Part shown: one piece after another, positions 46,617 to 52,582 of the stretch | How positions within the stretch are numbered: position 1 is the first letter of the stretch | Layout: every line of letters begins with the position of its first letter | Assembly (NCBI RefSeq): GCF_030384885.1 | Contig: NZ_CP128613.1 | DNA from: Escherichia coli | GTDB lineage: Bacteria; Pseudomonadota; Gammaproteobacteria; Enterobacterales; Enterobacteriaceae | Direction: 5' to 3' (one strand) | Length of the DNA: 64,000 bases | Translations under genes and position numbers: made by a program | Notes under the pieces: generated by a model | Told to the model about the DNA's origin: nothing | The model's database searches: none | What the model saw: the letters and a program-made list of their open reading frames with translations, nothing else

Positions 46617-46645
46617 AGGGCCAATTTGGAGTGAGGAAGGTGTCT

Positions 46646-46671
46646 GTAAAGAAAAGGGCAATTCCCATCAG
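46646..46671 (-). terminator. Hairpin with 11-bp stem downstream of the adhesin gene (probable terminator)
   Basis: gggcaattccc-atca-gggaattgccc; on the minus strand it is followed by TTTTCTTT. Confidence 0.6.
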
Positions 46672-46694
46672 GGAATTGCCCTCAGATTGTTGAT

Positions 46695-46800
46695 CTGGTG
46701 CGTCTTATCTTGCCGGATCCGGCGTGAACGCCTTATCCGGCCTACAGGAATGTGCTGAATCATCCCGTAGGTCTGATAAGCGTAGCGCATCACGCAATTT
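46695..46800. repeat. REP/BIME elements
   Basis: gccggatccggcgtgaacgccttatccggcctacagg and ccgtaggtctgataagcgtagcgcatcacgc: inverted REP pair flanking the 3' end of the adhesin insertion. Confidence 0.8.
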
Positions 46801-49800: not shown

Positions 49801-51855
49801 GATATTGGTGGTGTTAGTCGCCACGTTATCGTTAGTGGTTTTCAGCTGAGAACCGTTAACGGCGTCGGTGCTGGTGGCTGAAAGGTCGCCAGCGGTGACG
49901 TTAGTGATTTTGCTGGTGGCGTTGGTGCCGTGTGCAGCGGTGAATGCGCCTGCGGCGTCGTCCCATTTCAGGGCGTCTTCACTAAGGTCAGTCACCGTAT
50001 CAGTCAGGTTAGTGATATTGGTGGTGTTAGTCGCCACGTTATCGTTAGTGGTTTTCAGCTGAGAACCGTTAACGGCGTCGGTGCTGGTGTCAGAGAGTTC
50101 GCCAGCGGTGACATTGGTGATTTTGTTGGTGGCGTTGGTGCCGTGTGCAGCGGTGAATGCGCCTGCGGCGTCGTCCCATTTCAGGGCGTCTTCACTAAGG
50201 TCAGTCACCGTATCAGTCAGGTTAGTGATATTGGTGGTGTTAGTCGCCACGTTATCGTTAGTGGTTTTCAGCTGAGAACCGTTAACGGCGTCGGTGCTGG
50301 TGGCTGAAAGGTCGCCAGCGGTGACGTTAGTGATTTTGCTGGTGGCATTTGTACCATGTGCCGCACTATATCCCTTTTTAAGGTTGTCCCATTGTATCGT
50401 ATTCGTGTTTAGATCCGCTAAGGCGTCGCCAACATTGCCATAAATACCATTTTTCAGTCTGTAATTCGGGGAAGTCACAACGCCCTGCGAATTGACGGTC
50501 GCTCCTCCACCAAGATTATCCGCTACTGACTTACTAATAGCATAAAGCTGTGATCCATTGATGGCATCAGTACTGTCAGTGTCGATATCACCTTTTGCCA
50601 TATTGACAATTTTTCGCTGAGCTGTTGTGTTACCCACGGAGACAGTATCCGCTTCAGTCGCGACAGAATCAGCACCCAGAGCAACTGAATTTTTCCCCTG
50701 AGCACTGGCTTGAGCACCAATTGCAGTACCATTTTCTAAACCGGCATAACTGCCTTGTCCAAGAGCAATGGCATTTGCCCCACCGGTAATACTCCCATTT
50801 CCCAGCGCGATAGCATTTGCGCCGTCAGCTTTATTCCCTTGACCGATGGCAATTGTGCCAGCTGCTATTGCCTGACTTTGACTGCCCAGAGCAATCGTGT
50901 TGTCGGCATCGGCAATACTCCCGGAACCCAACGCGATACTATTAAGCCCATTTGCTTTCGCATCAGTACCCACTGCCGTTGCATTTTCAGCGGCTTTGGT
51001 CTTAGAGCCCATCGCGATGGAGTCTTTACCGGCTGCATCACTGTTATATCCCAGCGCAATACTGTCTTCACCAGTAGCTTTACTTTCTGACCCCATTGCC
51101 AGACTGTACCATCCGAAGGCTTTAGCTTTATAACCAATGGCTGAGGAAAAGAAGTTGGCTTCTGTTTCTGCTCCCATAGCCATGGAACCTGTATTCTCTG
51201 CCTTAGCTTTTCTACCTAATGCGAGACTGTCTTCACCACTAGCAGCACTCTCACTACCTGTGGCAATGGAGTTAGTTCCTGATGCTTTGGCCAATCGCCC
51301 TAATGCAAGGGCATTCGCAGCACTTGCTACCGTATCCTTGCCCAACGCCATGGCACCTTCAGCTGTAGCTTGTGCAGAATTCCCCAGTGCAAGGGTATAA
51401 TCGCTGGTCGCTTTAGCCGCACTGCCGATGGCGATTGAGCGGCTACCCGTGGAAACCGTTGATTGCCCTAAGGCGACCGATCTTTCTCCTGAGGAATTAC
51501 TCGAGAAGCCAATTGCAGTACTCCCCACTCCGGCATTAGCTCTTGCCCCGACAGCAACACTCCCTGTACCCGTTGTGCCTGTACCCATTGTATCTGATGA
51601 GGCGACGGCCTCTTTACCAATAGCAATCCAGTTATCACTCAGTGGCGTTTCGCCTGCAATTTCTTCTGCGCTTTTACCACCGTCAAGTGAAACCGAAGCA
51701 TAGGCTCCAACTGATGAGAGTAACCCACCGGCAACTAGCGCAGAAATTAACAGCTTACTGCGCCCGCTCTTTTTCCCACGACTCTTAGCCGTTTCGCTGG
51801 CAACGGTGTAACTGCCCGTCGCTGGATTCCAGATAACTTTAAAAATTTTGTTCAT
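46828..51855 (-). CDS. Trimeric autotransporter adhesin (YadA-like; UpaG/EhaG/SadA family), 1675 aa
   Basis: N-terminal extended signal peptide [21 protein letters not shown]...; long head region of degenerate ALG/SIAxG repeats; stalk with tandem 71-aa repeats; C-terminal membrane anchor ending ...AALGAGIQW. Confidence 0.92.
49470..50400. repeat. Tandem 213-bp (71-aa) coding repeats, ~4.3 copies, in the adhesin stalk
   Basis: The motif gattttg(t/c)tggtggc recurs at 49480, 49693, 49906, 50119 and 50332 (period exactly 213 bp); the protein repeat is AAHGTNAT(S/N)KITNVTAG(D/E)LS(A/D)[50 protein letters not shown], with two alternating variants. Confidence 0.9.
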
Positions 51856-51898
51856 TATTGATGCTCTCTATTCCTTGATATAAGCGCAGAAGCTGCAT

Positions 51899-52582
51899 TT
51901 ATTTTTTGTTTTTTCGCTGCCGGGTTTCAGCAGGTTGAACAGTGTCGAACTGGAGATTAGCCATATTGATGGACAACTTCAGATACTTCAGGTTATTAGG
52001 TGAAACGCCTTTTAATGTCAGATTAATGTCTTGCCATTGACCTGGCATTAATTGCAGGGTGGAGTTCATGGTGGTGTTGAACAGCAGTCGCTGCCACTTT
52101 GCCAGCGCTTTGGCATCGGTGGGTCTTTCATTGCCCCATGTGGCTTGAAAGCCAATATTTGATACGGGAACGCTTAATAGGTTGACCAGCGAAATACGAA
52201 TAACGCTGCCATTTTCAACCGCATCAATAGCCAGCACCCGGCCTGCCAAACCAACCGAGCCATTGTTTAAAATGAAGTATTTTGTTTGTGCTGGGTTAAA
52301 TTCGGTGAAGACAAATTCGTCCTGTTTGTCTTTGACTGCCTTTACTACACCCGCCAGCACTTTAGTGGTGTTTGCAATATTAATTTGTTGATTTTCAATA
52401 ATTTCTATTTTTCTTTTATATTGTTCTTGTTCTTTTTCAAGAATCTCTATTTTACTTTTTTGCAATTCTTGCTGTTTGACAAGATCGTCGATCAGATTCG
52501 CTTTCTCAATATAGTCACACCCAGTCAATACCCAGAGTGGCAATGTTATCAACATGCTTAATAGTGCTTTTTTGATGCTCAT
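51899..52582 (-). CDS. SadB-like lipoprotein encoded upstream of the adhesin
   Basis: 227-aa ORF with a lipobox (LTGC) after the signal peptide, a coiled-coil segment (QQELQKSKIEILEKEQEQYKRKIEIIENQQ) and a C-terminal domain; only 43 nt from the adhesin start on the same strand. Confidence 0.75.
   Translation of the reverse strand: MSIKKALLSMLITLPLWVLTGCDYIEKANLIDDLVKQQELQKSKIEILEKEQEQYKRKIEIIENQQINIANTTKVLAGVVKAVKDKQDEFVFTEFNPAQTKYFILNNGSVGLAGRVLAIDAVENGSVIRISLVNLLSVPVSNIGFQATWGNERPTDAKALAKWQRLLFNTTMNSTLQLMPGQWQDINLTLKGVSPNNLKYLKLSINMANLQFDTVQPAETRQRKNKK

Follow-up and report, generated by a model that had tools for sequence, protein, structure and literature searches.

A sadBA-type adhesin locus between the mtl and lld operons of Escherichia coli and its apparent deletion from K-12

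Introduction

A stretch of 64,000 nucleotides from the chromosome of Escherichia coli (assembly GCF_030384885.1, contig NZ_CP128613.1) carries, between the genes lldP and yibL, a gene for a lipoprotein followed by a gene for a giant trimeric autotransporter adhesin, neither of which is present at this place in K-12. This whole stretch is referred to here as the window, and all coordinates are window positions unless another frame is named. With a high degree of confidence, we regard the locus as the chromosomal sadB–adhesin (sadBA-type) operon of the Enterobacteriaceae, sitting in its ancestral slot between the operons for mannitol (mtlADR-yibT-yibL) and for L-lactate (lldPRD). The comparisons described below further indicate that K-12 lost the whole sadB–adhesin unit by a deletion of 6.4 kb, the locus itself being ancestral and near-core in E. 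coli, though not universal.

The segment missing from K-12

Open reading frames (ORFs) were taken from a program-made list and the yibL–lldP junction was compared by blastn with that of E. coli MG1655, the K-12 reference used throughout. The gap between yibL and lldP measures 371 bp in MG1655 against 6723 bp in the window. Positions 1–432 of the K-12 junction correspond to window positions 53583–53152 and positions 440–1100 to 46770–46111, leaving a segment of 6381 bp (46771–53151) that is absent from MG1655. This segment contains the sadB–adhesin operon, its upstream regulatory region and one repetitive extragenic palindromic (REP) element. Both genes lie on the minus strand: sadB (51899–52582) encodes a lipoprotein of 227 amino acids and is separated by a spacer of 43 nt (51856–51898, as read from the sequence) from the adhesin gene (46828–51855), which encodes 1675 amino acids. 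The flanks of the segment are 91–93% identical to K-12 by blastn.

An initial annotation of the window, made from its letters, had described a two-gene, operon-like insert of about 6 kb between lldP and yibL, genes that are adjacent in K-12, and its gene content and order are confirmed by the ORFs and by the comparison with K-12. The limits it had set, 46642–52582, enclose both genes, but the left edge lies about 130 bp within sequence shared with K-12 and the right edge falls about 570 bp short. The borders it had named are also in part as described: there are REP elements on the lldP side and an AT-rich region (GC 0.36) on the yibL side, but the latter is part of the missing segment rather than its border.

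Deletion in K-12 rather than insertion

Prevalence was determined in 5426 complete E. coli genomes. The sadB gene is present in 4149 of them (76%), always on the chromosome and almost always as a single copy, and a probe laid across the empty K-12 junction was covered in one piece in 1263 (23%), so that the occupied and empty states add up to 5412 of the 5426 genomes. Sampled empty junctions are 99.8–100% identical to the probe. Beyond E. coli, the genes follow the order mtlA-mtlD-mtlR-yibT-yibL-sadB-adhesin-lldP-lldR-lldD also in E. marmotae, E. fergusonii, Pseudocitrobacter vendiensis and Salmonella enterica. On the yibL side, the deletion ends 4 nt past the yibL stop codon; the other end, at 46770/46771, lies at the edge of a Z-type REP element, and the K-12 junction itself holds 7–12 nt of unrelated filler.

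The conserved order in four other species, the occupancy of 76%, the single form of the empty junction, the lack of an island signature and the literature together argue for a deletion in K-12 and not for an insertion. The operon, its chromosomal position and its deletion in K-12 had already been described by Grin et al. in 2014 (PMC3953254). The near-identity of the empty junctions fits one deletion event, the product of which was then either inherited or spread by recombination.

The initial annotation had read the locus the other way round, as an accessory insertion, and this polarity is contradicted by the occupied slot in the four other species, by the 4149 sadB-positive genomes and by the single empty junction. 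It had also proposed a comparison of the lldP–yibL junction across E. coli genomes, to be taken as a sign of a core rather than an accessory locus if K-12-like genomes carried the same genes there; occupied and empty states do indeed differ among E. coli genomes, but the term accessory does not hold, the outcome being largely the core one.

Could the 6 kb nevertheless be an accessory island gained by horizontal transfer, with K-12 preserving the original, uninterrupted state? The absence of the segment from K-12 would be explained in this way, as would the AT-richness of sadB (GC 0.405) and of the region upstream (0.36) relative to the window (0.494). The alleles at the locus also diverge widely among E. 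coli genomes, with nucleotide identity of sadB down to about 71% and an adhesin that is a mosaic, which implies that DNA moves through the slot by recombination. Such exchange concerns alleles of a resident locus rather than an island, however, and the island reading is already at odds with the conserved synteny, the gene pair occupying this slot in four further species, which represent three other genera or lineages. Moreover, the slot is filled in 76% of E. coli genomes, empty slots share what is essentially one junction sequence, and a deletion in K-12 is stated in the literature (PMC3953254). The GC content of the segment as a whole (0.489) is not deviant, that of the adhesin gene being 0.516, and the ORF list of the window holds no integrase, transposase or tRNA at the segment. 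Its ends show no target-site duplications or inverted repeats of at least 8 nt, the longest shared word being 7 nt, which is the level expected by chance; an island or transposon delimited by these ends was rejected for this reason. Taken together, we consider an island extremely unlikely and retain the deletion from K-12.

The SadB lipoprotein

A search of all PDB chains with the lipoprotein returned a single hit, Salmonella SadB (4C47; E=3.2e-70), in which query residues 23–227 align with chain residues 3–207. The matched residues make up the whole mature lipoprotein, which is 51.7% identical to the 4C47 protein; identity to another Salmonella allele is 65.6%. The N-terminus reads MSIKKALLSMLITLPLWVLTGC followed by DYIEK, giving the lipobox LTGC with aspartate at position +2, and the GCDY motif is kept in all six of the six orthologues compared. 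Judged from the PDB match and the sequence, sadB (51899–52582, minus strand) encodes in turn a signal peptide, the lipobox, a coiled coil in the N-terminal part and, at the C-terminus, a beta domain. Within the part that encodes the coiled coil there is a 42-bp repeat (14 amino acids, or two heptads) at 52385–52471, a counterpart of which is visible in the Salmonella sequence aligned to 4C47. The paralogue YajI (2JWY) was not matched by the lipoprotein at E<=0.01 among all PDB chains.

Because scans of Pfam-A and NCBIfam gave nothing significant and no hit, respectively, the assignment to the SadB family rests on the PDB match together with the names given by RefSeq to sadB orthologues, which are either 'DUF3251 domain-containing protein' or 'SadB/YajI family lipoprotein'. 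The genomic context is that of the family: sadB lies directly upstream of a trimeric autotransporter gene, with yibL/mtlR and lldP as flanks. All of this identifies the protein as a full-length SadB orthologue, with a predicted lipid anchor and a predicted membrane location.

The trimeric autotransporter adhesin

The domain plan of the adhesin is apparent from Pfam. An extended signal peptide region (ESPR, PF13018; E=8e-16) occupies amino acids 1–48 (51712–51855, minus strand), more than 20 YadA_head matches (21 were counted) lie mostly within amino acids 109–409 (about 50629–51531, minus strand), 13 YadA_stalk motifs are present, and a YadA-type membrane anchor (YadA_anchor, PF03895; E=2.4e-19) closes the protein at amino acids 1615–1675 (46831–47013, minus strand). 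Anchors of this type contribute four beta strands per monomer to a 12-stranded barrel.

The best PDB matches are fragments of Salmonella SadA, headed by 2YO0 (E=1.6e-138) and followed by 2YO3, 2YNZ, 2YO2, 2YNY and 3ZMF; fragments of BpaC, AtaA, Hia, YadA and UspA1 were also matched, and the anchor in addition matches the Hia anchor structures 3EMO, 2GR7 and 2GR8 and the YadA anchor. With matches of this strength to solved structures, for the lipoprotein as well as for the adhesin, neither ORF is a product of chance. A scan of NCBIfam gave only matches below cutoff (the Ata, EmaA, Vomp, BimA and YadA models), which points to membership of the family and to no named equivalog. In other strains, the yibL–lldP slot holds a gene annotated ehaG (O157:H7) or a UpaG-type gene (uropathogenic E. 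coli, UPEC, strain 536), each with sadB upstream. The adhesin can thus be classed, from its domains and position, as a trimeric autotransporter and a positional orthologue of UpaG, EhaG and SadA, and membership of this family suggests a surface homotrimer with adhesive activity.

The two proteins had been recognised correctly in the initial annotation. Its SadB-like lipoprotein with lipobox LTGC and coiled coil is upheld by the full-length match to 4C47, and the extended signal peptide, YadA-like head repeats, repetitive stalk and C-terminal anchor of its adhesin are all found by Pfam. The comparison that it had called for, with UpaG, EhaG, SadA and SadB, has likewise borne fruit in the shape of the 4C47 match, the SadA fragments and the ehaG and UpaG-type genes in the same slot. 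Of the features of the SadB family and of trimeric autotransporters that could be tested, all were found here save a match of the lipoprotein to a curated Pfam or NCBIfam model.

Operon organisation and regulatory elements

The two genes look like an operon because the spacer between them is only 43 nt long, because a terminator scan found no terminator-like site between them on the coding (minus) strand, and because the spacing is kept, at 43–44 nt, in E. marmotae, E. fergusonii, P. vendiensis and S. enterica. For Salmonella, a spacer of 44 bp between sadB and sadA has been reported (PMC3953254).

Upstream of sadB, the AT-rich intergenic region that separates it from yibL (52583–53155; GC 0.36) is presumed to be regulatory. 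Aligned across seven taxa, it has a mean identity of 59% with islands of invariant columns. One such island is a promoter-like site on the minus strand (52784–52813) that comprises TTGACA (52813–52808), 18 nt and then TAAAAT (52789–52784), with 11 of the 12 positions as in the consensus. The sadB start is about 200 nt downstream of this site, which is the sole one of its kind on the minus strand within 46300–53600; TTTGACA does not vary, and the -10 block hardly does, among E. coli alleles, E. marmotae, E. fergusonii, Pseudocitrobacter and Salmonella. We regard the site as a putative promoter. A second conserved box, AATTCTGAAAAT, is seen at about 52975–52990 on the minus strand, some 190 nt upstream of the -35 element; it corresponds to alignment columns ~158–172 and is kept from E. 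coli to Salmonella amid poorly conserved intergenic sequence. This box may be the binding site of a regulator. By analogy with upaG, which is reported to be repressed by H-NS (PMC5012682, citing Totsika 2012), the AT-rich upstream region is probably an H-NS target.

Downstream of the adhesin stop codon there is a Z-type REP element (46767–46797, minus strand), located by a pattern match with one mismatch where none would be expected by chance, and then a Y-type element (46713–46746, plus strand) that is kept in K-12 and has an exact REP half-consensus at 46728-45. The two are convergent, forming a pair like that of a bacterial interspersed mosaic element (BIME). The REP consensus used in the pattern searches is one that we take to be standard, and the Z-type sequence recurs in the window at 55917–55941. 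The full consensus of 36 nt, as we assumed it, had no match, the loop length being different; it was the half-site and Z-type patterns that located both elements. Beyond the pair, a terminator scan identified a hairpin on the minus strand (46654–46683) that resembles an intrinsic terminator, with 13 pairs followed by the T-run TTTTCTTT. RNA folding of 46640–46830 gave z=-7.0, the hairpin being closed in the minimum free energy structure as well as in the centroid structure, and in K-12 the same hairpin follows yibL. It is likely to be the terminator of the sadB–adhesin operon.

Two Rfam matches in this neighbourhood are below threshold. One, at 46702–46742, is to the REP-derived naRNA4. The other, at 46585–46692 on the plus strand, is to the enterobacterial small RNA STnc380 and scores 31.7 bits, where the gathering score is 60. 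This match overlaps with the hairpin of the terminator upstream of lldP, and the hairpin alone probably accounts for it. As both are sub-threshold, no RNA gene is claimed near the 3' end of the adhesin gene.

Allele class, rare head and repeat number

Within E. coli, sadB falls into four discrete classes of nucleotide identity to the window gene: at least 95% in 28 genomes, about 87% in some 1370, and about 79% and about 71.5% in the other 2745 together. At the protein level, SadB is 67–79% identical between allele classes (78.9% to the UPEC 536 type and 67% to the O157 type), and the neighbouring YibL is represented by a single protein accession in all of the E. coli loci that were fetched. 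A divergence of this order within one species is unexpected for a periplasmic protein, and it does not track the head type of the adhesin. In genomes of the ~79% class other than strain SCU-116 (see below), the position of sadB bears the label 'hypothetical protein'.

The adhesin is conserved at one end and hypervariable at the other. The anchor is 93–100% identical across all alleles compared, Salmonella included, and residues 1200–1675 are 71–100% identical to all of them, and 81–99% identical to Salmonella. Residues 1–300 are the hypervariable part, with 41–73% identity to all alleles compared outside the lineage of the window. Between these lie residues 301–500 (50356–50955), which are 92–94% identical to the protein of P. 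vendiensis (10728–15563 of the fetched locus) and 44–64% identical to the UpaG, EhaG, SCU-116, E. marmotae, E. fergusonii and Salmonella alleles, which suggests that recombination between genera has taken place at the locus. In these comparisons, UpaG (CFT073 c4424) is represented by its UPEC 536 orthologue.

The head is rare. Its coding DNA is present at full length in only 12 of the 5426 complete E. coli genomes. A protein search with the head domain, cut at 8000 word-sharing candidates, yielded mostly short fragments. In strain 2020CK-00188, a SadB that is 97.4% identical to that of the window is encoded beside a head that is 44–50% identical, so that SadB type and adhesin head type are uncoupled. 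Residues 1–300 of the head being 41–73% identical to both UpaG and EhaG, the passenger is of neither sequence type, and the adhesin is best described as an allele class of its own at this locus. Because the passenger differs in sequence from both types, the binding properties of UpaG and EhaG are not transferable to the allele in the window.

The stalk contains a tandem array of a 213-bp (71 amino acid) module at 49475–50361 (minus strand), with 4.2 copies and 95% matches (Tandem Repeats Finder, score 1606), each unit holding one YadA_stalk motif. Near-identical loci were found through sadB and the mtl flank, since internal repeats split 7-kb DNA matches. Among them, the adhesin gene has a length of 5028 bp in the window, 5241 bp in strain 6409 (one more unit; 4616–9856 of the fetched locus) and 5880 bp in strain 2013C-4282 (four more units; 8728–14607 of the fetched locus), giving 4, 5 or 8 copies of the module among loci that are otherwise 99.4–99.7% identical. 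Either the fibre varies rapidly in length, or the array was collapsed when the genomes were assembled. It is conceivable, although on balance we doubt it, that the rare allele class binds differently from UpaG and EhaG, that its stalk length can be rapidly tuned, for example to reach past lipopolysaccharide (LPS) or capsule, and that SadB has co-evolved with some other part of its client.

A model for adhesin display and its alternatives

In the mechanism that we propose, the sigma-70-type promoter about 200 nt upstream of sadB would drive a single transcript across both genes, its AT-rich surroundings probably being silenced by H-NS, and this transcript would end at the hairpin at 46683–46654, past the REP pair. 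SadB would be exported, lipidated at Cys22 and kept in the inner membrane by the aspartate at +2, with its trimeric coiled coil and three beta domains projecting into the periplasm. The adhesin would pass the inner membrane via Sec by means of its extended signal peptide, whereupon the Bam complex would insert three adhesin chains as a 12-stranded YadA-type barrel and the passenger would be extruded as a head–stalk fibre. SadB would raise the amount and integrity of the displayed fibre, probably by gathering the three unfolded, repetitive chains in register near the Sec exit. The 71 amino acid module, with its 4.2 copies at 95% matches, is the type of sequence that could pair out of register.

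Much of this scheme is modelled on Salmonella SadB, a tri-acylated lipoprotein of the inner membrane, whose crystals show a trimer in which a coiled coil is combined with three beta domains (PMC3953254). Its aspartate at +2 predicted retention in the inner membrane, which was confirmed by fractionation and mass spectrometry, and expressing SadB jointly with SadA led to a higher surface signal and to greater protease resistance of the fibre (PMC3953254). That a trimeric SadB tethered at the Sec exit gathers the chains is a proposal of Grin et al. (PMC3953254).

Several observations weigh against our account of the locus. Grin et al. were unable to demonstrate a direct interaction between SadB and SadA (PMC3953254). 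In strain SCU-116, the annotation gives sadB (8001–8684 of the fetched locus) as a pseudogene that contains an internal stop, and the downstream adhesin gene is intact, encoding 1583 amino acids, so that SadB may be dispensable in some lineages. Promoter use, control by H-NS, co-transcription and adhesin function in the source strain are all matters that we infer, and the single origin of the deletion is deduced from the identity of the junctions rather than from a phylogeny. The missing Pfam and NCBIfam match of the lipoprotein also counts here, although, given the match to 4C47, it appears to be a gap in the libraries and no evidence against homology.

Two alternatives concern function. One is that the locus is a silent relic whose genes are intact and either permanently repressed by H-NS or non-functional, so that the mechanism just outlined does not operate. 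We think this unlikely: both ORFs have remained intact across 5.7 kb that include a recombination-prone repeat array, the promoter boxes are conserved across genera, and the conservation of the anchor and the membrane-proximal stalk, at 80–100%, indicates purifying selection. A relic would sit well with the AT-rich upstream region and with the reported repression of upaG by H-NS (PMC5012682); repression in the laboratory is, however, compatible with function in a host. The loss of the locus from 23% of genomes, the decay of sadB to a pseudogene in some strains and the fact that the conditions of native sadBA expression were unknown to Grin et al. (PMC3953254) are further points in its favour. 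The other alternative is that the lipoprotein is a mere neighbour of the adhesin, with an unrelated periplasmic role like that of its paralogue YajI and no part in display. The want of a demonstrated SadB–SadA interaction, the uncoupling of SadB type from head type in 2020CK-00188 and the SCU-116 pseudogene beside an intact adhesin gene might be so understood, but we think this alternative very unlikely: the close linkage of 43–44 nt is kept across genera, and sadB was deleted from K-12 together with the adhesin gene. In addition, both the display and the protease resistance of SadA drop without SadB in Salmonella and E. coli hosts (PMC3953254), and SadB homologues are confined to Enterobacterales genomes that have such adhesins (bioRxiv 10.64898/2026.01.22.700529). 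The reading of the locus as a sadB–adhesin operon whose lipoprotein assists display of the adhesin is therefore the one that we prefer.

Other features of the window

On the lldP side, the segment is followed by lldP (44756–46432), lldR (43980–44771) and lldD (42793–43983), all on the minus strand. On the other side lie yibL (53156–53518, minus strand), yibT (53802–54011, plus strand) and mtlR (54022–54609, minus strand), with mtlD and mtlA next (all from the ORF list). Across the mtl region, 11 E. coli genomes are 100% identical to the window and nearly all others 95–99%. An Escherichia species other than E. coli had been considered as the source, the flanks of the segment being only 91–93% identical to K-12, but was rejected in view of these mtl identities. 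A second REP pair is present between mtlA and mtlD at 55822–55941, with a Y-type element at 55863–55880, a Z-type element at 55917–55941 and again a sub-threshold naRNA4 match. The mtlD of the ORF list, at 470 amino acids (54609–56021), is an artefact caused by this pair, annotated mtlD having 382 amino acids.

As a whole, the window is 93–97% identical to K-12; outside the waa and rhs regions, most of its 1-kb bins are about 91–99% identical. The LPS core (waa) locus at about 18000–27000 is 67–84% identical to K-12 or has no match there. In strain 6409, which is of the identical lineage, the waa genes comprise rfaL, an N-acetylglucosamine (GlcNAc) transferase gene, a galactosyl-LPS alpha-1,2-glucosyltransferase gene, rfaY, waaO, rfaP, waaG and rfaQ, a set that presumably resembles the R3-type core and not the K-12 type. 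Collinearity is broken at about 9259–9337, where about 1.1 kb of K-12 (3817539–3818700, with dinD between yicC and yicG) is without counterpart in the window; in strain 6409, as in the window, yicC is directly followed by yicG. Finally, about 60000–64000 is the region of an Rhs element, and 61359–62406 and 63224–64000 both match K-12 in the 3' part of rhsA and in the yibJ region. The corresponding region of strain 6409 contains rhsC, ybfB, an RHS core fragment and an Imm57 immunity gene, and because of this gene content the toxin/immunity tip would differ from that of K-12.

Comparison with known systems

The gene pair, its position, the deletion in K-12, the structure of SadB and its helper role are already known, having been published between 2012 and 2014, and RefSeq labels the genes. 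For Salmonella sadBA, the references are Hartmann et al. (2012) and Grin et al. (2014). What is added here is the correction of direction to a loss in K-12, the occupancy figures of 76% and 23%, the rare head (12 of 5426 genomes), the variation in repeat number and a promoter-like site shared across genera. These may be of use in the typing of E. coli adhesins, in work on vaccine antigens of the UpaG/EhaG type and in the study of how SadB acts.

The closest relative is the sadBA locus of Salmonella enterica (SadB, 4C47; SadA, STM3691), which shares with that of the window the mtl–lld slot, the gene order and a spacer of 43–44 nt. The two SadB proteins are homologous over their full length and have in common the lipobox, the aspartate at +2 and the two-heptad repeat of the coiled coil, and SadA follows the same plan of ESPR, head, repetitive stalk and anchor, with 81–99% identity over the membrane-proximal 475 amino acids. 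They differ in that SadB is only 52–66% identical, that the adhesin has 2044 amino acids in the fetched Salmonella locus against 1675 in the window, and that the N-terminal 500 amino acids of SadA are 44–62% identical to those of the window adhesin.

UpaG, EhaG and SadA have been termed positional orthologues in a review (PMC7247748). UpaG occupies this position in E. coli and has the same domain plan as the window adhesin, to which it is 80–100% identical over residues 800–1675, whereas the head and distal stalk (residues 100–800) are 43–77% identical and the linked SadB 78.9%. According to the same review, UpaG binds extracellular matrix proteins and bladder cells (PMC7247748). EhaG of O157:H7 is likewise a positional orthologue, with an anchor that is 100% identical and residues 1200–1675 that are 83–100% identical, but its passenger is 41–67% identical over residues 100–900 and its linked SadB is 67% identical in amino acids and about 71.7% in nucleotides.

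Helpers of this kind are few. A survey of trimeric autotransporters in 2026 listed SadB as one of only two known, restricted to the Enterobacterales (bioRxiv 10.64898/2026.01.22.700529). Its paralogue YajI (2JWY), likewise a lipoprotein, is predicted to have a coiled coil at the N-terminus and shares a homologous beta domain at the C-terminus, but differs from SadB in being about 14% identical, in lying elsewhere in the genome and in having no link to an autotransporter (PMC3953254). TpgA, which serves AtaA in Acinetobacter, is like SadB a small periplasmic protein that is encoded beside a trimeric autotransporter adhesin and promotes its display (bioRxiv 10.64898/2026.01.22.700529). Unlike SadB, it has an unrelated fold, in which a BamE-like domain is joined to an OmpA-type peptidoglycan-binding domain, and it acts at the outer-membrane barrel, so that the relationship between the two helpers is one of analogy and not of homology.

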